Source of the DNA: Klebsiella pneumoniae
GTDB lineage: Bacteria; Pseudomonadota; Gammaproteobacteria; Ga0077536
NCBI GenBank assembly: GCA_945876945.1
Contig: CAMCQE010000005.1
Location: forward strand, 922 to 64,921
DNA length: 64,000 bases
Reading direction: 5' to 3'
The notes below the pieces were generated by a model. The model was given only the letters and a program-made list of their open reading frames with translations, was not told the origin of the DNA and ran no database searches. Shown piece after piece: positions 10,813 through 22,968 of the stretch; the stretch's first letter is position 1; each line of letters starts with the position of its first letter. A program made the translations under genes and the position numbers.

Positions 10813-11592
10813 ATGAAACTACCCTCGCGGATCGTAGATATTTCCCAACCGCTCGATAACGACACCGTGGTTGACCCGCCGTTCATGCGCCCCTCGATTC
10901 GCTACGTCACCGGCAAAGAAAACGCCAAGCTCATGTGCGAGCTGTTTCCGGGGCTGAAGGAAGAAGACCTGCCCGGCGGCGAAGGCTGGGCGATTGAGCA
11001 CATTTCGCTGACCACGCATAACGGCACCCATATGGACGCGCCGTATCACTACAACTCGGTCGACTCCAAGGGCAATCCCATGCCCACCATCGATCAGATG
11101 CCGCTGGACTGGTACTTCCGCCCCGGGGTGAAGCTGGATTTCAGGCACTTCGAGGATGGTTATGTCGCCACCGCGGCGGACGTTCAGGCGGAACTGAAAC
11201 GCATTGGCTACGAACTAGCGCCCATGGACATCGTGCTGGTGAACACCCGCGCCGGTGAGATGTATGGCACCGACCAATACATCCATTCGGGCTGCGGCGT
11301 TGGTCGCGAAGCCACCCACTGGCTCACCGAACAGGGCGTACGCGTGACGGGGATCGACGGCTGGAGCTGGGACGCACCGTTCTCCAAAACGCTGGAGCGC
11401 TGGCTCGCCACCAAGGACCCCCGCATCATCTGGGAAGGGCATTACGCCGGGATCGACACGCCCTACTCGCACATGGAGAAACTGCGGCATCTGGAGCAGC
11501 TGCCCTCGCACGGCTTTGTGGTGTCCTGCCTGCCGATCAAAATCAAAGGCGCCTCCGGCGGCTGGACGCGCGCGGTGGCGATGTTCGACTAA
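10813..11592 (+). CDS. cyclase family protein (kynurenine formamidase-like fold)
   Basis: Has the motif HNGTHMDAPYHY (HxGTHxDxPxH). AGGAG lies 7 nt before ATG 10813. The track uses TTG 10807. Confidence 0.8.
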   Translation: MKLPSRIVDISQPLDNDTVVDPPFMRPSIRYVTGKENAKLMCELFPGLKEEDLPGGEGWAIEHISLTTHNGTHMDAPYHYNSVDSKGNPMPTIDQMPLDWYFRPGVKLDFRHFEDGYVATAADVQAELKRIGYELAPMDIVLVNTRAGEMYGTDQYIHSGCGVGREATHWLTEQGVRVTGIDGWSWDAPFSKTLERWLATKDPRIIWEGHYAGIDTPYSHMEKLRHLEQLPSHGFVVSCLPIKIKGASGGWTRAVAMFD

Positions 11593-11604
11593 GTCCAAGG
11601 CCTT

Positions 11605-11625
11605 GCCCGTCGCTCAGCGGCGGGC
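11605..11625. terminator. GC-rich hairpin between convergent genes (weak bidirectional terminator candidate)
   Basis: GCCCGTCGC-TCA-GCGGCGGGC forms a 9-bp stem including one G-U pair. There is no clear U-tract on either side. Confidence 0.3.
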
Positions 11626-11633
11626 GAGGTTCA

Positions 11634-13004
11634 TCAGTTGGCGGCTGATAACACCCGCACAGGATTGGCGTAAATCCAGTCAAGCCAACCTTCATCGCCG
11701 ACAAGTAGCGCCAACTCCACCCGATAGTTCCCTGCCGCCGGTACCGGCCAGTCCAGCGTGCGGGATTCAACGCGCGCGATCGCTTCACCGTCTTTGACTA
11801 TCGTCCAGCGCGCCGGCAGCGATGCTTCGCCTTTGAGGCGGAGCGCCGGGGTCCAGGCAATGTTCTCGCCCATGGTCGCGCGAAGCGGGCCATCCTCGGC
11901 GAAAAAGACGAAACCACGGGCATCCGCGAGCAGGTTAAACGCCACGTAGCAGCGGGCGCTGCGCAGGGCGTCCATGAGTGCTTCCGCAGTGTTGTCGTGG
12001 GCCAGCAAATGGGTATTCACATAGCGCAGGCTGCGCTCGTAGGGGTCCAGATCCAGATGCACGAGTTCGCGTCCGGGGATCAACGGCCCGAACAGCAGCG
12101 CCAGCATCCAGCGCGTGACGGGGCCGACGGGGCGCTGCGGGTCGGTGAAGGATTTCCGGCTCGACTGACGCAGCCACAAGCCACCCTGCTCGGTGTACTC
12201 AAGGCGTAGCCCCAGGTTCTGATGCGCATCGTTGGCGCCAAAGCCGCTCATGCGCCGGTCGCGATTCTGCCGGTCCCACAGCTTCAGCTGCGCCTCGGGG
12301 CGGTCGTAGATTTCGCGGATCGCGAGCTCAGGCCAGCGCCAGGTATTCATCAGCAGCTGCGGCAGGATGCGGCCAAGCTTGTCGTCCAGAAAGTCGGTGT
12401 GGATGTTGTAGATCTCCATCGCCGATACCGCGGTGACGTCATAAGGCCTCGGCATTTCGGTGTGCCCGAAGCCCGTCAAGCCGCCTGCGCCTTCCACCCG
12501 TGCAGCGGTCTCGGCGAGCGGCACGCCGCAATCAAGGGTCGCCTGACTTGCCAGCCCCCAGATCAGCAGCCCGTTATGCAGTTCCCAACCGCGAATGAAC
12601 CGAACCTCGTGGTGCAGTCCGTCCCACTGCAGGCTGAAGTCGGCTTTTTTATCGATGCAGTGGTCGGTCATGAAGACGACGTCCACGCTTGCCGCCTTCG
12701 CGGCCGCGAGGATGCTGGGGAACGGCACTTCCGAGTCGTGTGAGAGCGCGGAATGCGAATGGATCACGGCCCGATATTCGCCCCAGCCGTCGTCAAGCTG
12801 CACGGGCGCCGCCTGTGCGCGGAGAGCGGTCAACTCGTGCGTGAGGCGCGGGAAGCGAAAGAAATAGTTCGACAGCGGCGCGCGCAGATAAACCGCCGAG
12901 GCCAGCAGGAGCACGCACGTCGCACCGAGCAGGACACGCCAAGTGATGAACCACCAGCGCGTAGCCGCGCGACGTCGTTGCCGCGCCCGTGCGATGGAAG
13001 ACAT
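11634..13004 (-). CDS. membrane-anchored PHP-superfamily metallophosphoesterase-like protein
   Basis: The N-terminus has an Arg-rich stretch plus one TM helix (WWFITWRVLLGATCVLLLASAVYL). PHP-like metal motifs are present: HSHSALSHDS, FMTDH, GANDAHQN. The C-terminal end is ...WIYANPVRV. The start is ATG 13004 or 13046. Confidence 0.55.
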   Translation of the reverse strand: MSSIARARQRRRAATRWWFITWRVLLGATCVLLLASAVYLRAPLSNYFFRFPRLTHELTALRAQAAPVQLDDGWGEYRAVIHSHSALSHDSEVPFPSILAAAKAASVDVVFMTDHCIDKKADFSLQWDGLHHEVRFIRGWELHNGLLIWGLASQATLDCGVPLAETAARVEGAGGLTGFGHTEMPRPYDVTAVSAMEIYNIHTDFLDDKLGRILPQLLMNTWRWPELAIREIYDRPEAQLKLWDRQNRDRRMSGFGANDAHQNLGLRLEYTEQGGLWLRQSSRKSFTDPQRPVGPVTRWMLALLFGPLIPGRELVHLDLDPYERSLRYVNTHLLAHDNTAEALMDALRSARCYVAFNLLADARGFVFFAEDGPLRATMGENIAWTPALRLKGEASLPARWTIVKDGEAIARVESRTLDWPVPAAGNYRVELALLVGDEGWLDWIYANPVRVLSAAN

Positions 13005-13168
13005 TGCGACCCCGGAATTGAAACCTTGTGTTGAGGCACCCTCCAATCAATTGGAGGCTTAAGTCTCAATTCTGGCACAGGCCCCGCATTCATCCCGCGG
13101 CGGGCGCAAAGTTTTTCACCTGCTCGCCGGGATCGGCAAAGCAGGTGGCGTCCGGCCAGACGACCGGC

Positions 13169-13549
13169 TTAGAACGTGGCGGTTTCCAGATGGATGTAAC
13201 CGAAGTCCTCAACCAAATCCTGTCCGAGCTCTTCCATGGTGTCGTCTTCCTCTTCGTGTTCCCACACCACCTGCACTTCGGTGCCGTCCTTGCCCCAGTC
13301 GTTAAACATGGAGAGCAAGGCGCGGAAGCCCTTGGTCGAGCTACTGTTGACGTACTGCAGCCTGAATACAGCCATGAACTCCGATGGCTTGGCGCCCGTG
13401 TACCAAGTGGCGAGCTTGGCGGTGATGCCGTCGAAAAACGGCATTGGATTTTCGGGATAGCATTCGCCTTCCAAAGACATCTGACGCGCGTCGGCTTCAA
13501 AGGTCACTTGTGGGGTAACGGCGGTGGCTTCGATGGTAAAGTCGCTCAT
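13169..13549 (-). CDS. DUF1987 / SiaC-like partner-switching protein
   Basis: 126 aa. Contains ECYPENPMPFF...RLQYVNSSSTKGFRALLSMF...VVWEHEEEDDTMEELG, typical of DUF1987. It lies downstream of a SiaB-like kinase gene. Confidence 0.75.
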   Translation of the reverse strand: MSDFTIEATAVTPQVTFEADARQMSLEGECYPENPMPFFDGITAKLATWYTGAKPSEFMAVFRLQYVNSSSTKGFRALLSMFNDWGKDGTEVQVVWEHEEEDDTMEELGQDLVEDFGYIHLETATF

Positions 13550-13602
13550 GGGTCTCAGTCCTGCTACTGGGTTAGTCCTGTTACGGAGGGTTTCAGGGTG
13601 AT

Positions 13603-14175
13603 TTAGATCACGGCCTTGATGAAGAAATAGGCCGCGTTATCCGTCCGGGTGGGATCGGATAAAAAGTGAAATTCGAGCGGCTCTGAGCTGTCGCGCGCCA
13701 GAGTCAAAAAACCCAGACCAGCGCCTTTGCTTACGGCGTCGTTCTGGGCGTGCTCGTCGTTGCGCAACTGCTCCTTGTACTGCTTCTTGATCTCTTCAAG
13801 GCTCAGGGTCTGCACTTCACGGAGCTTGGCGCTGATGCGCGGAATGCTTTCGTAGGCCACGAGATTCGCGCAGGCAATCCAGAACTGCGTGTCGTTGGCT
13901 TTGCCGACCGCGATGGCGCCCAGTTTGGCATCCACGTCCTGGCCGCTCGCAGTTTGGGCCTGCACCCCGTAATGCATCACGTTTTGCGCCATCTCGATGA
14001 AGGTGGAGAAGAGCTTGCGCGACTTCTGCGCCGCAGTGCCTTCATCCGCCATGCGGGCCTTCAGTGAGTGGGCCGCAGCTTCCACAATCGGGGTGGAGAA
14101 CTCGCCGTGGTAGTAATAAAAAACCTGACTTTTCTGCGCGTATTGCGTGAAAGTTGCAAAAGAACCGATGTCCAT
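13603..14175 (-). CDS. SiaB-like (anti-sigma-factor-type, GHKL-fold) serine/threonine protein kinase
   Basis: 190 aa. Contains FSTFIEMAQNVMHYG ... GAGLGFLTLAR, as in SiaB/RsbW-type kinases. It starts 15 bp after the phosphatase gene stop, with an AAGGAA RBS. Confidence 0.7.
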   Translation of the reverse strand: MDIGSFATFTQYAQKSQVFYYYHGEFSTPIVEAAAHSLKARMADEGTAAQKSRKLFSTFIEMAQNVMHYGVQAQTASGQDVDAKLGAIAVGKANDTQFWIACANLVAYESIPRISAKLREVQTLSLEEIKKQYKEQLRNDEHAQNDAVSKGAGLGFLTLARDSSEPLEFHFLSDPTRTDNAAYFFIKAVI

Positions 14176-14190
14176 CGTTATTCCTTGGGC

Positions 14191-15546
14191 CTAAGGGTTG
14201 AGTCTGAAAATGAAGATACTGACGTCGTCGCGGCGTTTCTGTTCGCCCTGCCAATCGACGTAAACCTGCTGAAAGCCGGTCACCAGTTCCTTCGCGGACT
14301 GGTTGATGTGTTTCTGGACGAAAGTACCGATCCGTTTCTTGCCGAAGGCGATGTTCTTGGGGCCACCGACCTGGTCAATCACGCCGTCGGTCGCAATGGT
14401 CATTACGGACCCTTGGGGGACGGTGATTTCGTAGGTTTTCCACACGGCGTCGGCGGGTGTATCGAAGTAGCCGATGCCGGCTTTGTCCCCGTCCTCGGAG
14501 CTCACCTCACCGTCGGGCGTGACAACAATCAGGTGCAACTTCGCCGCCGCGTACTTGATGGTGGTTGAGCCGTCTTCGAGCGTGAACATAAACGCGTCGA
14601 GGCCGTCGTTCGACGCCTTACGCGTGGCTTCGTCGTTCTGCTGAAGCACGCGACGCACGTACTGATGTAGCTTGGTTAACGCGGTGCCCGGATCGGCGTG
14701 TTCGTCGATCGTGGCTTCTTCAAAGTACTGTTCGAAAAAGGACAGCACGATGAGCGTCATGAAGGCGCCCGGCACACCGTGACCGGTACAGTCGAACGAG
14801 CATCCCAAGACGCCCTTGCTGGTGCGGCGAAAGAAGTAGGCGTCACCGCCCACGACATCTCGTGGGTCCCAAAGAATGCCGTAATCTTTGAAGTAAGCGG
14901 CGAGTGCGCGGTCAGAGTCGGCGAGGTGCGACTGCTGAATAAGACTCGCGTAGTTGATACTGGACATCAGCATCTTGGTTTTTTGGGCCTCGATGTCCGA
15001 CATGGATTTCAGCAGCGAGAAGCCGGTACCCATGCCCACATACTGCCCCTGCCGAGTGACGATAAAGCCGTCCTTCAAGGCCCCGCCACCATCATCCAGT
15101 GCGGCCTTGACCAAGGCCTCGACCGTCACGCTTTCTTCAATGATCAGCGGATACTCGAACATGAAGGTGGTGCAGCCGTCACGACCGAAGAGCTCGCGCC
15201 CGAAGGCACGACCGAAGCCTTCCATAAACGTGTGGCGGTTAATCAACCCGATCGGCACACCGTCGCGAACAACGGCGATGGTCTCCACGCCCGGATTCTT
15301 CACGAGGTATTGGTGCACCAGCGTATTGGTGGTGTCGGGTGTTACGGGGACCAATGGTTCTGACAGGTCTTTGGCAAAGCGCGCAATGGCTTGCTCGGTG
15401 CCTGTATCGGCTTTGGGTATGGATAGTTTTTCAGTCACTCGAGGCCACCTTGATCCAGAGAGAGGTAAACAGGTGTCGAAATCGGCTTTGCGGGAAGCCG
15501 CTGAGTTGAGCACCGGGCGCTGGTCGCTGACTGAAACAGAGGCCAA
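14191..15546 (-). CDS. PP2C/SpoIIE-family phosphatase with N-terminal CBS-pair-like sensor (SiaA-like role)
   Basis: The C-terminal half has VVGGDAYFF...FDCTGHGVPGAFMT...IATDGVIDQ (SpoIIE/PPM). The N-terminal half has two CBS-like units (IAVVRDGVPIGLINRHTF; GFIVTRQGQYVGMGT). No TM segment is present. An alternative GTG start lies at 15438. Confidence 0.75.
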   Translation of the reverse strand: MASVSVSDQRPVLNSAASRKADFDTCLPLSGSRWPRVTEKLSIPKADTGTEQAIARFAKDLSEPLVPVTPDTTNTLVHQYLVKNPGVETIAVVRDGVPIGLINRHTFMEGFGRAFGRELFGRDGCTTFMFEYPLIIEESVTVEALVKAALDDGGGALKDGFIVTRQGQYVGMGTGFSLLKSMSDIEAQKTKMLMSSINYASLIQQSHLADSDRALAAYFKDYGILWDPRDVVGGDAYFFRRTSKGVLGCSFDCTGHGVPGAFMTLIVLSFFEQYFEEATIDEHADPGTALTKLHQYVRRVLQQNDEATRKASNDGLDAFMFTLEDGSTTIKYAAAKLHLIVVTPDGEVSSEDGDKAGIGYFDTPADAVWKTYEITVPQGSVMTIATDGVIDQVGGPKNIAFGKKRIGTFVQKHINQSAKELVTGFQQVYVDWQGEQKRRDDVSIFIFRLNP

Positions 15547-15803
15547 ACGCCCGGGCTCGGGCTCCTATCGGCACCAAGGAAATCATCCTTAAGAGCGTTT
15601 TCAAGTTGTCTGGGAAATTAGGGCGGTTTTTTTGAAGGGAAAGCGAAAATATCGATTCTCAGCGTCCGCGATGGGCAATTCACGGCCCTAAAAAGACAGT
15701 CTCGTGACAACAATCCAGAAGTGAGCAGCGGGCCAGATGGCTCGCAGAACGAAGCAAGGGTCGTTTCAGGCCCGGACTAAAACCGGGCGACAACGGATTC
15801 GGC

Positions 15804-16610
15804 CTATCCTTCCGCGGCGGGGGATACGAGCAATTCGGGCGTGGCAGGGGACGCCACCATCGCCACGTCACTGTCATCCTTCAATTCAACGCCCGTCAGT
15901 TGACGCAGCAAGGCTTCATTGATCAACCAGCCGAGCTTGCGGGCCGCTTCGGGGTAAGGCAGGCCGGCGGGGCGGATGTTCGACACGCAGTTACGTTCGG
16001 CGTCGGAACGCCCCCGGCGGGGATTGAAAGTGAGATAAGCACCCAGGCTATCGGGCGAACTCAGGCCCGGGCGCTCACCGATGAGCATCACCACCAGACG
16101 CGCTCCCAATGCTTCGCCAATGTCGTCGCCCAGCGCGACCCTTGCCTGCGTGGCGATGACCAGCGGCGCCACCCGCCACGCGGGGTGCAGCTGCGGCAAC
16201 AAAGCCTGCAGCAGCGGCGCGCCGTGAGCCTGCACGGCCACCGCAGACAAGCCGTCGGCAAGGACCAGCGCAATATCGAAAGGGCCTCTGTGGTCGCGCA
16301 GCGAGGGCTCGGCATCGGGGGCAATGCTGCGTCCCAGATCGGGTCTTAGCAGGTAGCTCGCCCGGTCCGGCGCGCGACTCCGCACCCACACCGTGGGGAG
16401 TCCGAGCGACGCAAGGCTGGCATCGAGGCTGGTGGGGTCCAGCGCGGCATGCACCGCATCGCGCGCCATCGCATGCGCCAGACCAAACTTCAGCACTTCG
16501 TCGGTGGGCAGGCTGGACCCCACGCGACCCAGCGCGATCCGGGCGTCGGTGAACTGGCGGAGCTCGGTCCAGGGATTGGCTTCGATGACGACCGGTTTCT
16601 GCTCGCTCAT
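15804..16610 (-). CDS. eutC: ethanolamine ammonia-lyase small subunit
   Basis: 268 aa, EutC-like (ARIALGRVGSSLPT...). Its start overlaps the eutB stop by 4 nt. Confidence 0.9.
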   Translation of the reverse strand: MSEQKPVVIEANPWTELRQFTDARIALGRVGSSLPTDEVLKFGLAHAMARDAVHAALDPTSLDASLASLGLPTVWVRSRAPDRASYLLRPDLGRSIAPDAEPSLRDHRGPFDIALVLADGLSAVAVQAHGAPLLQALLPQLHPAWRVAPLVIATQARVALGDDIGEALGARLVVMLIGERPGLSSPDSLGAYLTFNPRRGRSDAERNCVSNIRPAGLPYPEAARKLGWLINEALLRQLTGVELKDDSDVAMVASPATPELLVSPAAEG

Positions 16611-18093: not shown

Positions 18094-19146
18094 TCAAGCC
18101 CGTTCGTACCAGCCTTTGGTCTGGTTGACGATACGCACCACCAACAGCATCACCGGCACTTCAATCAGTACGCCCACCACCGTGGCCAAGGCCGCGCCGG
18201 ACTTGAAGCCAAACAGGCTGATCGCCGCCGCCACCGCCAGTTCAAAAAAGTTGCTGGCCCCAATCAGCGCCGACGGGCAGGCCACGTTGTGTGCCTCGCC
18301 CAGCCGCCGGTTCAACCAATAGGCCAGCGCCGAGTTAAAAAACACCTGAATCAGGATGGGCACCGCCAGCATGGCGATTACCAGCGGTTGCTGAAGAATG
18401 GCTTCGCCCTGAAACCCGAACAGCAGCACCAGCGTCGCGAGCAGCGCTGTGATGGACCACGGCCCAATCTTTGCGAGGGTGGCGTCAAACGCGGCTGGGC
18501 CCGCCTTGAGCAGGCGCGCCCGCCACACTTGCGCGAGCAGCACCGGAATCACGATGTAGAGCACCACCGAGGTGAGCAGCGTCGCCCATGGCACGGTGAT
18601 GGAAGACAACCCGAGTAGCAGCGCCACAATGGGCGCAAAAGCGAACACCATGATGGTGTCGTTGAGCGCCACCTGCGACAGCGTAAAAAGCGGGTGCCCG
18701 CCGGTGAGGCGACTCCACACAAACACCATTGCCGTGCACGGCGCGGCTGCCAGCAGGATGAGGCCGGCGATGTAGCTGTCGATTTGGTCGGCGGGCAGCC
18801 AGGGCGCGAAAACCTGCCGTATAAATACATAGCCGAGCAGCGCCATCGAAAACGGTTTCACCGCCCAGTTCACAAACAGCGTGACGCCGATGCCGCGCCA
18901 ATGCGCTTTCACCTGCTCGAGCGCGCCGAAGTCCACCTTCAGCAGCATGGGGATAATCATCACCCAAATCAGCAGCCCGACCGGCAAATTGACCTTGGCG
19001 ACCTCCATGCCGCCGATCGCCTGCACCGGGCCGGGCAGCAGTTGCCCTAAAGCAATGCCGGCCAGAATGCATAAGAAAACCCAGACCGTGAGGTAGCGCT
19101 CAAAAACGCTCATCGGCGCGGGGTCCGGGGTGTTCGCGTTGTTCAT
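18094..19146 (-). CDS. acr3: ACR3-family arsenite efflux transporter
   Basis: 350-aa polytopic membrane protein, ACR3-like (FERYLTVWVFLCI..., AAAPCTAMVFVWS). It is the last gene of the ars operon. Confidence 0.9.
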   Translation of the reverse strand: MNNANTPDPAPMSVFERYLTVWVFLCILAGIALGQLLPGPVQAIGGMEVAKVNLPVGLLIWVMIIPMLLKVDFGALEQVKAHWRGIGVTLFVNWAVKPFSMALLGYVFIRQVFAPWLPADQIDSYIAGLILLAAAPCTAMVFVWSRLTGGHPLFTLSQVALNDTIMVFAFAPIVALLLGLSSITVPWATLLTSVVLYIVIPVLLAQVWRARLLKAGPAAFDATLAKIGPWSITALLATLVLLFGFQGEAILQQPLVIAMLAVPILIQVFFNSALAYWLNRRLGEAHNVACPSALIGASNFFELAVAAAISLFGFKSGAALATVVGVLIEVPVMLLVVRIVNQTKGWYERA

Positions 19147-19160
19147 GGTGAAAACTTCTC

Positions 19161-19667
19161 CTAGCGATTAGCGATGTCGGTCAGGGCCAACTGCAGGGCG
19201 GCGCGGTCCATCTCGGCCAGAGGCAAGGACAACAGTTGCAAACAGCGGTAACCCAGCGCCTGCCGGGTGAGTTCAAACGCCCGCCGTTTGGCGCTGTCAT
19301 CCCCGTCCGCGCGCGAGGGATCCGGATAGGGCCAGTGCACTTTGACGGGCGGCGACCCGGGCCGGCCGGTAAAAAGGGGGCAGACTTCCGCCGCCGCGCT
19401 GTCGCACACGGTGATGACGATGTCCAACGCAGGCGCGGTGCTGCCGGTGAACTCATCCCAGCTCTTGCTGCGGAAGCCGCGCGTATCGATGCCACTTCGG
19501 CTCAACACCGCCAGCGCGTGCGGATTCACCACCCCGCCAGGCGCACTGCCGGCACTGTAGGCGCGCACGTCTTTCCCCAGCCGCTCGGCCCAATGGTTGA
19601 GCATGCCCTCGGCCAACACGCTGCGGGCCGAATTATGGGTACACAGAATGAGGACGTTGGTGGCCAT
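19161..19667 (-). CDS. arsC: arsenate reductase, LMW-PTPase (thioredoxin-coupled) type
   Basis: Has the CX5R(S) P-loop LCTHNSARS and a downstream Cys pair VCDSAAAEVCP. Confidence 0.9.
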   Translation of the reverse strand: MATNVLILCTHNSARSVLAEGMLNHWAERLGKDVRAYSAGSAPGGVVNPHALAVLSRSGIDTRGFRSKSWDEFTGSTAPALDIVITVCDSAAAEVCPLFTGRPGSPPVKVHWPYPDPSRADGDDSAKRRAFELTRQALGYRCLQLLSLPLAEMDRAALQLALTDIANR

Positions 19668-19676
19668 GCAGCGCTC

Positions 19677-20117
19677 TCAACAGCAGGATGACTTGGGCGG
19701 ACTTACCGGCGCGCAGCACCCGCTGGTGGCGACGGACGGCGCCTCACCGAACACCGGAATATCGCCCAGCGTGTGAAAGAACTCCCAGGGCAAACCCGAG
19801 GGGTCCATGATCCAGTGCTTTTCGCTGCGCGCGTAACAGCACGCCGCCTCGCCCTCGTTGACCAGCGCCAGCTCAGCCCGTGCGGACTGGGTCTTAAGCT
19901 CGGCGAGTTCCTCGCCGGTGTCTGTCTGGAACCCAAAGTGATTAACCCCGGCCGCCTCGCCGCGTGTCGAAATGGCGAAATTCACGCGCGGGTCGTCAAG
20001 CATCCACTTGGCGTAGTCGGCTTCCAGGCGGGTGGGAGGCAGCCCGAAAAGCTGGGAATAGAACACCACGCTGCGGTTGAGATCGGCGACATGCAGATGG
20101 ACGTGAAAGCGTTTCAT
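19677..20117 (-). CDS. arsI: ArsI/CadI-family VOC metalloenzyme (putative C-As lyase)
   Basis: VOC fold. The vicinal Cys pair sits in AACCYARSEKHWIMDPSGLPWEFF, as in ArsI, and there is a Cys-rich tail. The ATG at 20117 follows GAAGGAG, and the 15-codon track extension was dropped. Confidence 0.75.
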   Translation of the reverse strand: MKRFHVHLHVADLNRSVVFYSQLFGLPPTRLEADYAKWMLDDPRVNFAISTRGEAAGVNHFGFQTDTGEELAELKTQSARAELALVNEGEAACCYARSEKHWIMDPSGLPWEFFHTLGDIPVFGEAPSVATSGCCAPVSPPKSSCC

Positions 20118-20127
20118 ACAGACTCCT

Positions 20128-20451
20128 TCAGCAGGGGCAGGATGTTGATGCCACCACCGCACAGGGCTCGCCCTCGCAGCAGTTGGCGGTGAGATAGGCC
20201 AGAAGCTCGTTCATGTGGGCGTATTCCGCGCGGTAAATCAGATGGCGACCGCTGCGTTCAAGGCTAACCAGCCCCGCATGGGCGAGCTCCTTCAGATGAA
20301 AGGACAAGGTGGCCGGCGGCACGCCCAAGGTCGCGCCCAAAATGCCCGGCGTCATCCCCGGCGACCCAGCAACCACCAGCGCCCGAAAAATCCGCAGGCG
20401 ACTGGGCTGAGCGAGCGCCGCGAGCGCCTTGATGACCTGAGTCTCTTCCAT
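20128..20451 (-). CDS. arsR: ArsR-family metalloregulator
   Basis: Has the wHTH LAQPSRLRIFRAL...LSFHLKELAHAGLV. It lacks the CVC motif in helix 3 and instead has a C-terminal NCCEGEPC cluster. It is the first gene of the ars operon. Confidence 0.9.
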   Translation of the reverse strand: MEETQVIKALAALAQPSRLRIFRALVVAGSPGMTPGILGATLGVPPATLSFHLKELAHAGLVSLERSGRHLIYRAEYAHMNELLAYLTANCCEGEPCAVVASTSCPC

Positions 20452-20736: not shown

Positions 20737-22968
20737 ATGGCCGTACTGACCGGCACTTCCGCCAAAAACCGGCTGAGCGGCACCAGCAGTCGCGACACCC
20801 TGAACGGCCTGGCCGGTGACGACACCCTGCTCGGCCTCGCCGGCAGCGACCTGCTGCTGGGGGGCGCCGGAAATGACACCCTGGACGGCGGCGCGGGCGC
20901 CGACACGCTGAACGGCGGCGCGGGGGATGATGTTTATCTGGTCGACGCCGCGCTGGACAAAGTGCTGGAATCCGCCAGCTCAGGCACAGATCTGGTCAAG
21001 AGCACCGTCAGCTACACGCTGCCAACCAATATTGAACAACTCACCCTGCTCGGTAGCGCCGCCCTCAACGCCACCGGCAACGCGCTCGCCAATCGCCTGA
21101 CCGGCAACGCCGGCAACAACCGGTTAAACGGCGGTGTTGGCGCGGACAGCCTGATCGGCGGGGCCGGCAACGACACCTATGTCATCGATAACCTGGGTGA
21201 CCGCATCAGCGATTCCGCCGGCGTCGACACGGTGGAAACCTCCCTCTCCTATCAACTGGGCACCGGCCTCGAGCGCTTGGTCCTGACCGGCGCGGCCTCG
21301 ATCAATGGCACGGGCAACACCCACGCCAACCTCATCACGGGCAACAGCGGCGACAACACGCTCGATGGCGGCACGGGCAACGATACGCTGTTCGGCGCGG
21401 CAGGGGTCGACACCCTCTACGGCGGCGACAACGACGACACCCTCGACGGCGGGGCGGGCGCAGACACCCTCATCGGCGGCGAGGGCAACGATCTGTTCGT
21501 GGTCGACGATGCGGGCGACGTGGTGCTCGACGCTGGCGGCCTCGATACGCTCGCCTGCTCCTTCAGCTATGCGTTGGATGCGGCGCTTGAAAACCTGATC
21601 CTGAGCGGTAGCGCGGCGATTAATGGCGCGGGCAATAGCGGCGCGAACAGCATCAGCGGCAACAGCGGCAACAACACGCTGGACGGCGGCGCCGGCAACG
21701 ACACCCTCATCGGCGGTCTGGGCGACGACACCCTCATTGGTGGCGCCGACAGCGATACCGCGAGTTACGACACTGCGCCCGCCGGCGTCAGCGTGGCGCT
21801 TGCCGCCGGCGTGTTGCTGCGCTATCGCTTCAATACCGATGCGCTGGTCTACAACAACCCGGGGCTCGATCCCGCCAGCACGCTACCTAGCGGGCTCTCC
21901 GGCGGTGGCGCGTGGTCGACGCAAGACGGTACGGCGCTCGAAGTCGCGGGCTTGAAAGGCCAGGGCGTCACGGACACAGCGATCGCGGCCACGAGCTGGC
22001 ACGACGGCAACGCCTTTGTGTTCAGCCTGACGGTGGCGGAGGGTTACGTGCTGGACCTCTCGTCGGTTGATTTCTGGGAACAGGGCTCGAGCGGCAATCG
22101 CGGCTTTGGCCCCACCAGCTGGAGCCTGAGTGCGAACAGCGTGAGTCTGGCAGCCGGCGCCGCCCAGCGCGGCAATCCGGGCGCCGTGCATCTGCTTGAT
22201 TTGAGCGCTCAAAGCGCCCTCGCCGGTACGGTCAACTTCATGCTGGCCGCCACGGGCGCCGCGGATTCGGCGCTCGGTGCGAACAACGCCGCCGGCGCGA
22301 CCTGGCGCGTCGACAACTTCACCCTCACCGGCAGCGTTCGTCCGGCGCAGGCGCCGGCGCAAAATACCGGCGGCGCAGGGAACGATGTATTGCTCGACAT
22401 CGAGCACCTTACCGGCAGCGCCTATGCCGATAGGCTGACCGGCGACGCGAGCGACAACACCTTGACTGGCGGCGCCGGCGCCGACGTACTGGCAGGGCTG
22501 GGCGGCGCGGACCAGCTGCTGGGCGGCGCCGACGCCGACACCCTCTACGGCGACGCGGGCGCCGACACCCTGGATGGCGGCGCCGGCAGCGACGTGCTGG
22601 AGGGGAATGCCGGCAACGACACCTTGAGCGGCGGCGCGGGCGAGGACAGCTTTCGCTTCAGCGCCATGCTGGGCGTTGGCAACGTGGACATCGTGAGCGA
22701 CTTTGCGGGCGCGGGCGCGACCGGCGGCGACGTTCTGTTGCTCGACCGCGACTGGTTCTTTGGGATGACAGCCGGCGCGCTGGCCGGCGCCGCCTTCGAG
22801 ACCGGCACCGCAGCGAGCGCATTCACCACCCGCATCCTCTATGACGCCGTGACAGGCAATCTGTTCTTTGATCAGGACGGCAGCCTGAGCACCTTCAGCC
22901 CCGTGCAGTTCGCCACGCTCAGCACCCATCCGGCCGGTCTGGCCGCGGGCGACTTCCTGATCGGCTGA
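20737..22968 (+). CDS. RTX-type calcium-binding repeat protein (probable type I secretion substrate) with central non-repeat domain
   Basis: 743 aa. It has many GGxGxDxL/I nonapeptide repeats arranged in about 75-aa super-repeats (residues ~1-345 and ~545-640). A repeat-free stretch spans about 350-540. There is no N-terminal signal peptide. Confidence 0.85.
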   Translation: MAVLTGTSAKNRLSGTSSRDTLNGLAGDDTLLGLAGSDLLLGGAGNDTLDGGAGADTLNGGAGDDVYLVDAALDKVLESASSGTDLVKSTVSYTLPTNIEQLTLLGSAALNATGNALANRLTGNAGNNRLNGGVGADSLIGGAGNDTYVIDNLGDRISDSAGVDTVETSLSYQLGTGLERLVLTGAASINGTGNTHANLITGNSGDNTLDGGTGNDTLFGAAGVDTLYGGDNDDTLDGGAGADTLIGGEGNDLFVVDDAGDVVLDAGGLDTLACSFSYALDAALENLILSGSAAINGAGNSGANSISGNSGNNTLDGGAGNDTLIGGLGDDTLIGGADSDTASYDTAPAGVSVALAAGVLLRYRFNTDALVYNNPGLDPASTLPSGLSGGGAWSTQDGTALEVAGLKGQGVTDTAIAATSWHDGNAFVFSLTVAEGYVLDLSSVDFWEQGSSGNRGFGPTSWSLSANSVSLAAGAAQRGNPGAVHLLDLSAQSALAGTVNFMLAATGAADSALGANNAAGATWRVDNFTLTGSVRPAQAPAQNTGGAGNDVLLDIEHLTGSAYADRLTGDASDNTLTGGAGADVLAGLGGADQLLGGADADTLYGDAGADTLDGGAGSDVLEGNAGNDTLSGGAGEDSFRFSAMLGVGNVDIVSDFAGAGATGGDVLLLDRDWFFGMTAGALAGAAFETGTAASAFTTRILYDAVTGNLFFDQDGSLSTFSPVQFATLSTHPAGLAAGDFLIG

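Follow-up and report, generated by a model that had tools for sequence, protein, structure and literature searches.

A SiaABC-type partner switch with a predicted CBS-pair input and a probably unlinked effector

A 64-kb stretch of contig CAMCQE010000005.1 (hereafter, the window) carries on its minus strand three consecutive genes whose products resemble the SiaA phosphatase, the SiaB kinase and the SiaC phosphoprotein of Pseudomonas aeruginosa. We think it reasonably probable that this locus is a complete SiaABC-type partner switch belonging to a subclass with a CBS-pair input, that it is held under purifying selection, and that its effector is encoded elsewhere, an enzyme of cyclic di-GMP (c-di-GMP) metabolism being the most probable candidate. 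At the level of sequence and predicted structure, the set is complete for a module that works like SiaABC. A PP2C phosphatase, a GHKL kinase and a small phosphoprotein encoded in a single operon are the generic mark of partner switching, and all three are present. Besides a relocated output, the target of SiaC may itself have changed in the branch of the family to which the locus belongs.

In the papers searched, experimental work on Sia systems concerns P. aeruginosa only; there, membrane perturbation serves as the input and SiaD as the output. Neither experiments on a CBS-input Sia system nor a comparative account of one turned up in that literature. Our comparisons show that many Betaproteobacteria, methanotrophs and Holophaga reuse the SiaB/SiaC core behind a soluble CBS-pair input. 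In other loci the core goes with adenylate/guanylate cyclases and GGDEF-HD-GYP proteins that share a stalk with SiaD, and one branch, which includes the window's locus, probably has the switch separated from its effector. We therefore place the locus in a subclass of Sia-type partner switches that has a CBS input and is uncharacterised, and, within it, in a branch with an unlinked effector. An earlier reading of this DNA from its sequence alone (the sequence-only reading) had called it an uncharacterised variant of the switch; the variant is real, but its distinctness was overstated. The locus is an ordinary member of its branch, and its value lies in the family-level picture and less in the single site.

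The three genes and their products

The features on which the argument rests are as follows.

14191..15438, minus strand: gene for a soluble CBS-pair + PP2C (SiaA-type) phosphatase, 415 amino acids (aa) from GTG 15438; the mechanical open reading frame (ORF) extends to TTG 15546
13603..14175, minus strand: gene for a SiaB-family GHKL-type protein kinase, 190 aa, by Pfam, NCBIfam and structure matches
13169..13549, minus strand: gene for a SiaC-family (DUF1987) phosphoprotein, 126 aa, by Pfam, NCBIfam and structure matches
15025..15381, minus strand: predicted CBS pair (Bateman module), residues ~20-138 of the 415-aa phosphatase, by profile, AlphaFold2 (AF2) and Foldseek
14893-15024, minus strand: predicted linker helix from the CBS pair to the PP2C domain, residues 139-182 (~44 residues), in the full AF2 model
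13343..13345, minus strand: codon of Ser69, the predicted phospho-acceptor of the SiaC-like protein, which aligns with P. aeruginosa SiaC Thr68
15439..15803, minus strand: intergenic region between eutC and the phosphatase gene, the presumed promoter region of the triad, 365 bp

In the ORF list, the three genes share the minus strand and are separated by gaps of only 15 and 53 bp, as the sequence-only reading had it, and all of the peptide motifs quoted there are present. That reading gave the phosphatase 451 aa. An ORF of that size exists, running from the first TTG (14191-15546), but the start is probably GTG 15438, for a product of 415 aa. We adopted the shorter form because an AAGGTGG Shine-Dalgarno sequence precedes this GTG, a 415-aa product is an exact entry in a public collection, gene calls on related contigs have the equivalent start, and homologues of ~428 aa also align from it.

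Measured against a 98%-identical metagenomic relative, the ratio of nonsynonymous to synonymous substitution rates (dN/dS) is 0.058 for siaA, 0.051 for siaB and 0.118 for siaC, with similar values for eutB and eutC; at the sequence level, all three genes of the triad are under purifying selection. The GC content of the triad (13169-15438) is 55-57%, with a value at third codon positions (GC3) of 0.73-0.74, as compared with 61-67% and 0.75-0.82 in the flanking genes. This lower content fits a separate evolutionary history. A scan of positions 11400-16000 for sigma-70 promoters and terminators returned no promoter-like sites, and terminator-like sites at chance level.

The phosphatase matches Pfam SpoIIE (E 8.9e-19), and its best relative of solved structure is the PP2C domain of P. 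aeruginosa SiaA (6k4e, E 7.7e-36). The Foldseek comparison of the phosphatase model with 6k4e agrees (E 4e-24, TM score 0.89 on the target). The PP2C motifs GGD, DCTGHGVPGAF, TDG and RRDD, which are invariant in 30 homologues, are present in the window's protein. No transmembrane segment was found in it: the highest 19-residue mean on the Kyte-Doolittle scale is 1.42, and this stretch lies inside a conserved core helix of the PP2C domain. The hydropathy scan thus upholds the earlier statement that the phosphatase lacks such a segment. P. aeruginosa SiaA, by contrast, has two transmembrane segments and a HAMP domain (PMC7647112), whereas the window's phosphatase is predicted to be soluble and to carry a CBS pair. 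The NCBIfam SiaA equivalog aligns to it only at model positions 405-657 (168 bits against a cutoff of 700).

That the N-terminal half of the phosphatase has the fold of a CBS pair is confirmed by modelling and by homologues. By itself, the window's N-terminus scores 20-22 bits against Pfam CBS, under the gathering score of 24. Homologous N-termini match that family in 15 of 19 cases (best E 4.3e-8), and a profile built from the domain retrieves CBS proteins in the Protein Data Bank (PDB). The fold was assigned by modelling residues 1-150 separately; Foldseek searches with the full-length protein are dominated by PP2C matches and uninformative on the N-terminus. For the AF2 model of residues 1-150 (mean predicted local distance difference test score, pLDDT, 87), CBS pairs account for every one of the top 50 PDB matches, with E ~1e-8 and TM scores of 0.6-0.7. 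In the full-length model (pLDDT 88.7), a 44-residue helix connects the CBS pair and the PP2C domain. The proposal that this half of the protein is CBS-like thus stands, on the homologue matches and on the comparison of the model with known structures.

The 190-aa product matches Pfam DUF6272 (E 1.7e-36), exceeds the cutoff of the NCBIfam SiaB_fam_kinase model NF038262 (156 bits; cutoff 85), and resembles the P. aeruginosa SiaB chain 6kko_A (E 1.7e-17), so its designation as a SiaB-type GHKL kinase is sound. Against the narrower SiaB equivalog it scores 90 bits, below the cutoff of 225. Its GAGLG motif is present. The Glu of its FIEMAQN motif aligns, if a one-residue offset of the PDB chain is assumed, with Glu61 of P. 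aeruginosa SiaB, the predicted catalytic residue of that kinase (PMC7647112).

The 126-aa phosphoprotein matches Pfam SiaC (E 1.7e-30; 105.6 bits, cutoff 24.5) and the SiaC structures 6kko/6k4f (E 1.1e-10). It reaches 59.9 bits with the SiaC equivalog, below the cutoff of 150; all three of the window's proteins therefore fall below the NCBIfam equivalog cutoffs set for SiaA, SiaB and SiaC. The segment YVNSSSTK aligns with YLNTSSIK of P. aeruginosa SiaC, which places Ser69 opposite Thr68, the phospho-acceptor of that protein (PMC8457831). The two proteins have the acceptor loop Y-x-N-[ST]-S-S in common and differ in the acceptor itself, Thr in P. aeruginosa and Ser in the window. Ser is the rule among the homologues compared: it occupies the position in 42 of 43 aligned SiaC homologues, and the P. 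aeruginosa Thr is the exception. The Ser/Thr cluster that the sequence-only reading had singled out in this DUF1987 protein is accordingly intact, with its Ser69 at the acceptor position. Taken together, the domain assignments of that reading (SpoIIE, CBS, DUF1987, SiaB-like) all hold.

By homology with P. aeruginosa, the SiaB-like kinase would phosphorylate Ser69 of the SiaC-like protein, and the soluble PP2C would remove the phosphate. This phosphorylation would block partner binding, again by homology (PMC7647112, PMC8457831). We propose that the N-terminal CBS pair senses a cytoplasmic ligand or state and sets the activity of the phosphatase, the signal travelling along the ~44-residue helix to the PP2C domain; such an arrangement would substitute for the membrane/HAMP input of P. 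aeruginosa SiaA. The adenosyl-ligand or energy-status input that the sequence-only reading had implied may be the signal in question, but the CBS fold as such does not point to a particular ligand. Unphosphorylated SiaC would then bind and activate an effector encoded elsewhere, most probably a c-di-GMP-metabolising enzyme. The position of the triad beside eutBC and a gene for a weakly PHP-like protein would be incidental, the triad lying in a variable islet, and its transcription may be under a PhoB-type response regulator, that is, tied to phosphate limitation.

Relatives of the locus and the output of the switch

Homologues of the phosphatase number in the thousands. Of these, the nearest 120 are CBS-PP2C proteins of ~428 aa, many of them with a precomputed CBS match, and the close homologues with a named source belong to Burkholderiaceae, Ramlibacter, Rhodoferax, Noviherbaspirillum, Trinickia and Holophaga. 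A genome scan, which covered relatives up to ~41% identity, added at least 19 full-length CBS-PP2C loci among the matches listed, with ~35-42% identity to the window's phosphatase; the loci of the window's closer branch were retrieved individually. The distant loci come from Neisseriaceae, Paraburkholderia, Acidovorax, Janthinobacterium, methanotrophs, Phytobacter and Ectothiorhodospira. All 19 of those listed have siaB in the same order, and siaC as well except on one contig that ends early.

A hidden Markov model (HMM) built from the downstream genes identifies a canonical SiaD (~240-290 aa, a stalk plus a GGDEF domain) right after siaC in 14 of the 18 distant loci that could be scored. The CBS input is thus a common modular variant of the standard Sia operon and does not define a switch free of a cyclase; the sequence-only reading, which had set the locus apart by both features, overstated this. 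These operons of Burkholderiales and other proteobacteria (L003-L019) share with the window the CBS-PP2C architecture and the order of the triad, but differ from it in the SiaD that follows siaC and in three residues of SiaC (F75/F107/E110).

Closer to the window, at 43-57% identity to its phosphatase, we inspected ten distinct locus types, which we call the window's branch. The gene order of the triad is kept in eight of them; the exceptions are a Logan contig (L089) that ends inside siaB and a pair of loci without siaB and siaC (L083/L084). A SiaD-type gene adjoins the triad in none of the ten, and no stalk was found in the triad-adjacent proteins of the branch. Other c-di-GMP genes lie within three genes of the triad in four of the ten, as listed here.

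Window, L081, L082: no c-di-GMP genes near the triad
L083/L084: no c-di-GMP genes nearby
L085/L086: no c-di-GMP genes near the triad
L087 (Ramlibacter): no c-di-GMP genes near the triad
L090: no c-di-GMP genes near the triad
L092 (Trinickia): no c-di-GMP genes near the triad
L088/L089 (Holophaga): EAL-CBS-GGDEF gene directly after siaC (L088:10079-12112; the L089 contig ends inside siaB)
L094: EAL-CBS-GGDEF gene directly before the triad (L094:3910-5856)
L091: genes for PilZ, a binding protein, GGDEF and REC-HD-GYP proteins after siaC
L093: PAS-GGDEF-EAL gene three genes downstream of the triad

Because SiaD is never adjacent in this branch, yet four of the ten loci have other c-di-GMP genes at hand, an effector encoded elsewhere is likelier than a switch with no c-di-GMP output. 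The sequence-only reading had asked whether orthologous triads always lie beside a GGDEF gene, in which case this would be an ordinary Sia system. The distant loci, with their SiaD, go a long way towards that; the closer branch does not, with no SiaD and with other c-di-GMP genes in a minority of its loci.

Several observations weigh against our interpretation. Six of the ten branch loci have no nearby c-di-GMP gene. HMM searches of the window in six frames over its 64 kb found neither a GGDEF domain nor a SiaD-like stalk (best stalk E 0.73), so the earlier remark that no GGDEF gene follows the triad is correct for the whole window; among the Pfam-annotated genes in the 10 kb past its left edge there is likewise no GGDEF. 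The Pho-box-like site of the window, described below, has three mismatches, and its distance upstream of the start is 272 bp, as compared with ~60 bp for cleaner sites elsewhere. Finally, SiaC of the branch differs at positions 75, 107 and 110, which are among the SiaD contacts named in the crystal-structure paper (PMC8457831), so that a SiaD-type stalk may not be its partner. The close relatives L081-L087 also yielded no GGDEF domain or stalk.

In an alignment of 43 loci, SiaC of the window's branch has R75 (Q in L091), L107 and D110, in place of the F75/F107/E110 of most SiaC proteins from SiaD-linked CBS-type triads; position 75 is M in P. aeruginosa. The branch thus has a different predicted partner surface. 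This signature, together with the absence of an adjacent SiaD from all ten loci, makes room for the possibility that the switch is the same but its output new, SiaC of the branch controlling a different effector, such as an EAL-CBS-GGDEF phosphodiesterase of the RapA type or a protein with no part in c-di-GMP signalling. An EAL-CBS-GGDEF gene with the same CBS subfamily does adjoin the triad in L088 and L094, and Sia-type modules elsewhere are paired with class III adenylate/guanylate cyclases and GGDEF-HD-GYP proteins. On the other hand, those alternative outputs retain the SiaD-like stalk, which the branch-adjacent proteins lack; the neighbourhood comparison revealed no single fourth gene that co-varies with the triad in the branch; and the acceptor-loop motif, Y-x-N-S-[SA]-S-T-K, is unaltered there. 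We therefore regard a new output as possible, though clearly the less probable course.

The pairing with other enzymes is seen in modules elsewhere. In L020, L023, L027, L029, L030 and L032, a protein that matches the SiaD stalk HMM (core ...LL+.T+RL.R.SDR.E..L) is encoded directly after siaC. Five of these six are class III adenylate/guanylate cyclases by Pfam (PF00211), and that of L030 is alike by length only. The L028 gene (L028:8758-10431) joins the same stalk to GGDEF and HD-GYP domains, and that of L035 (L035:8792-10429) is similar in length only; both sit directly after a PP2C gene, with a siaB-siaC pair upstream of them. Sia-type switches thus appear to drive cyclases for cyclic mononucleotides too, by way of the same stalk. 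The genes for the six stalk proteins are located as follows.

L020:3020-4066: stalk + cyclase
L023:9828-10871: stalk + cyclase
L027:11307-12353: stalk + cyclase
L029:7272-8525, minus strand: stalk + cyclase
L030:4344-5402, minus strand: stalk protein, cyclase by length
L032:586-1608: stalk + cyclase

Two further observations concern c-di-GMP and SiaA-type genes more broadly. On the window's own contig, ~4-9 kb beyond its left edge (L095:1226-6675), lie genes for an MSHA-type pilus/type II secretion system, including one for an ATPase with an MshEN domain (PF05157). The MshEN domain is a c-di-GMP receptor, and the source organism thus probably uses c-di-GMP signalling. In some loci of Bacteroidota (L057, with six matches between 1490 and 13277; L064; L067), three to six SiaA-type PP2C genes stand in tandem on the same strand, sometimes with one siaB/siaC pair nearby.

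Candidate signals: the CBS subfamily and a Pho-box-like repeat

Two features of the family, a CBS subfamily shared with RapA-type enzymes and a Pho-box-like element, provide two testable hypotheses on the input that is sensed. A search with the CBS-pair profile returned 958 clusters (at 50% identity) at E <= 1e-10. Apart from CBS-PP2C proteins, the subfamily occurs in EAL-CBS-GGDEF proteins of ~610 aa, which are its commonest other carriers, in CBS-HisKA-HATPase-REC hybrids, and in CBS-PAS-GGDEF-EAL proteins. Across these architectures it retains the signature P62, G64, R68, P97, G124, F125, G131, Y133, G135 and, largely, C89. R68 is present in 100% of the members, and P62, G64, P97, G124, G131 and G135 are near-invariant; C89 has a frequency of 76-98% among the PP2C and EAL-CBS-GGDEF groups and of only 38% in the N-terminal histidine-kinase/GGDEF-EAL group. 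The conservation of these residues across architectures argues for the sensing of one specific ligand or state.

The EAL-CBS-GGDEF carriers have the architecture of RapA and PA3258, to which we liken them on that ground. According to PMC12900916, phosphate starvation leads RapA of P. fluorescens to lower c-di-GMP. In proteins of the RapA/PA3258 type, the c-di-GMP enzyme is fused directly to the sensor, whereas the window has a partner switch instead. The genes that adjoin the triad in L088 and L094 are of this type, and a link to phosphate limitation is possibly shared by RapA and the window's module.

The second feature lies in the region upstream of the phosphatase gene.

15693..15710, minus strand: Pho-box-like direct repeat TTGTCAC-GAGA-CTGTCTT, which begins 272 bp upstream of the GTG start

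The consensus used was CTGTCAT-N4-CTGTCAT with <=3 mismatches. The site is one of two matches in the 64 kb of the window, and shuffles of the 365-bp intergenic region yield one as good in ~1.2% of cases (P ~0.012). In the 98%-identical relative the site is nearer the consensus (CTGTCAC-GAAG-CTGTCTT).

The family gives a stronger signal. Among 28 non-redundant regions upstream of CBS-SiaA genes there are nine sites, against 0.5 +/- 0.75 in dinucleotide shuffles and 0.9 in random 400-bp windows from the same loci, and among 420 permutations of the half-site the true Pho version comes first. Seven of the 28 contain the exact repeat GTCAY-N6-GTCAY, always on the coding strand, against an expectation of 0.024. 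It stands 57-65 bp before the start in L085, L087, L090, L001 and L019, and 31 bp before it in L015 and L017, with starts at distant loci taken crudely as the first start codon. By eye, further imperfect repeats with an 11-bp period can be seen in L091 and L093 (L093:5770-6000). The repeat is enriched upstream of CBS-SiaA operons in both branches. Genes of phosphate metabolism also occur nearby: L088 and L093 have pstS-like genes that diverge from the triad, next to permease genes in L093 that read as pstCA-like, and the triad of L094 lies among genes for PhoD, alkaline phosphatase and 5'-nucleotidase. Together, the repeat and these neighbours suggest that a PhoB-type regulator may act here. 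The window by itself offers a weaker case, its site being imperfect and distant.

More speculative still than a new output is the idea that the branch is a distinct device in which these features combine: induction by a PhoB-type regulator, post-translational gating by the CBS ligand, a SiaC no longer bound to the SiaD stalk, and another effector encoded elsewhere, for example a RapA-type EAL-CBS-GGDEF phosphodiesterase with the same CBS sensor. If it were so, a partner switch would here govern a phosphodiesterase, or else a target with no part in c-di-GMP signalling, and phosphate status would be tied to c-di-GMP in Betaproteobacteria.

Neighbouring genes and other partner switches

Our preferred reading, a SiaABC-type switch with its effector elsewhere, holds that the genes around the triad have little to do with it. 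Upstream, on the same strand, are eutB and eutC (Pfam E 1e-220 and 5.8e-92), so this part of the sequence-only reading is borne out; the 365-bp gap follows. The next same-strand gene downstream, 206 bp from the triad in the 442-aa gene call, encodes a protein of 442-470 aa. That reading had described its product as membrane-anchored and PHP-like. The protein does have one N-terminal hydrophobic segment, but its PHP signal is weak, with a Pfam PHP match at E 0.0077 and 36 bits against NCBIfam CehA/McbA, both under cutoff.

Two loci from a close relative are instructive. In nucleotide sequence, the flanks of L083 and L084 match those of the window at ~90%, with 85-99% identity for the individual flanking genes. 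Protein identities are 99% for EutB, 96% for ACR3 and 91% for the PHP-like product. Both loci nevertheless lack siaB and siaC, and all that stands from eutC to the PHP-like gene is the following.

L083:6008-7243 and L084:1470-2705: divergent CBS-PP2C ORF of a close relative, between eutC and the PHP-like gene

Its CBS part is 73% and its PP2C part 45% identical to the window's protein. The PP2C part has DGAGQGV instead of DCTGHGV and a 4-residue deletion before GGD. Because this divergence far exceeds that of the flanks, we take the ORF for a different allele in a variable islet and not for a gene that has decayed in place. We read it as an allelic replacement, and it may be a stand-alone CBS pseudo-phosphatase. 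From the sequence comparisons, the eutBC and PHP-like neighbours of the triad look incidental.

These data bear on three other explanations, each of which we consider improbable. The first is that the triad is an orphan remnant that has lost SiaD and is decaying. The altered catalytic motifs of the ORF in L083/L084, the missing siaB and siaC there, and the low GC of the triad relative to its flanks could be read in this way. However, dN/dS of 0.05-0.12 in all three genes signifies strong purifying selection, none of the conserved catalytic and acceptor motifs is missing, and the same arrangement without SiaD has persisted in Comamonadaceae-type, Trinickia and other genomes. We rejected decay on the dN/dS values, and hold it to be very unlikely.

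An equally doubtful proposal is that the module regulates, or responds to, ethanolamine catabolism. The eutBC genes are directly upstream on the same strand, and in the unrelated locus of Methylomonas koyamae (L007:10394-12537) a CBS-SiaA triad is followed at 2 kb by eutBC, with a GNAT + carbon-nitrogen hydrolase gene between. Against this, eut genes occur at only that one of the 18 distant loci and, within the branch, are confined to the window's own lineage; the 365-bp gap has its own candidate regulatory site; and eutBC is retained in L083, where siaB and siaC are missing. From the flanks of the distant loci and from L083, we judged the link coincidental. The proximity in L007, which is independent of that in the window, is probably due to chance.

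Least credible of all is the PHP-like protein as an effector held or released by SiaC. In its favour is the place of its gene, the next on the same strand. Against it, no homologue was found in the flanks of the other 92 fetched loci; the orthologue persists beside eutBC in L083/L084 without siaB and siaC; the family consists of hypothetical proteins of ~450 aa whose source-named members are mostly from Hydrogenedentes-type genomes, independent of Sia genes; and an Arg-rich N-terminus followed by one hydrophobic segment suggests a mostly extracytoplasmic protein. We rejected the candidate on the first three counts.

The comparison with P. aeruginosa SiaABCD is close in some respects: the gene order A-B-C, a SiaA-type PP2C, and proteins of the SiaB and SiaC families are common to both. 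It differs at SiaD, which in P. aeruginosa belongs to the operon and in the window is found neither in the operon nor in the 64 kb, and in the SiaD-contact positions of SiaC discussed above. The logic of the module is also that of RsbU/RsbV/RsbW, HsbR/HsbA and BgrSTUWV, in which a PP2C phosphatase and a GHKL kinase act on a small STAS-like phosphoprotein; SiaC itself is structurally related to STAS domains (PMC8457831). The window's system differs from these in its kinase family (SiaB/DUF6272), in its phosphoprotein family (DUF1987), and in having no sigma factor.

The window as a whole is ordinary chromosomal DNA of 63% GC and belongs to a metagenomic contig of 105.8 kb. From the ORF list and two Pfam-annotated genes, it includes gap/pgk, an ars operon, polA, rpoN/lpt, tol-pal and ruvABC. 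Directly upstream of eutB, on the minus strand (18094-20451), is a four-gene operon that resembles those for arsenic resistance (ArsR-like, glyoxalase-like, ArsC-type and ACR3-type products); the Pfam matches of the L083 orthologues (HTH_20, Glyoxalase, LMWPc, SBF) agree with this assignment. On the plus strand at 20737-22968, the ORF translation reads as a 743-aa protein made up mostly of RTX-like GGxGxD calcium-binding repeats.

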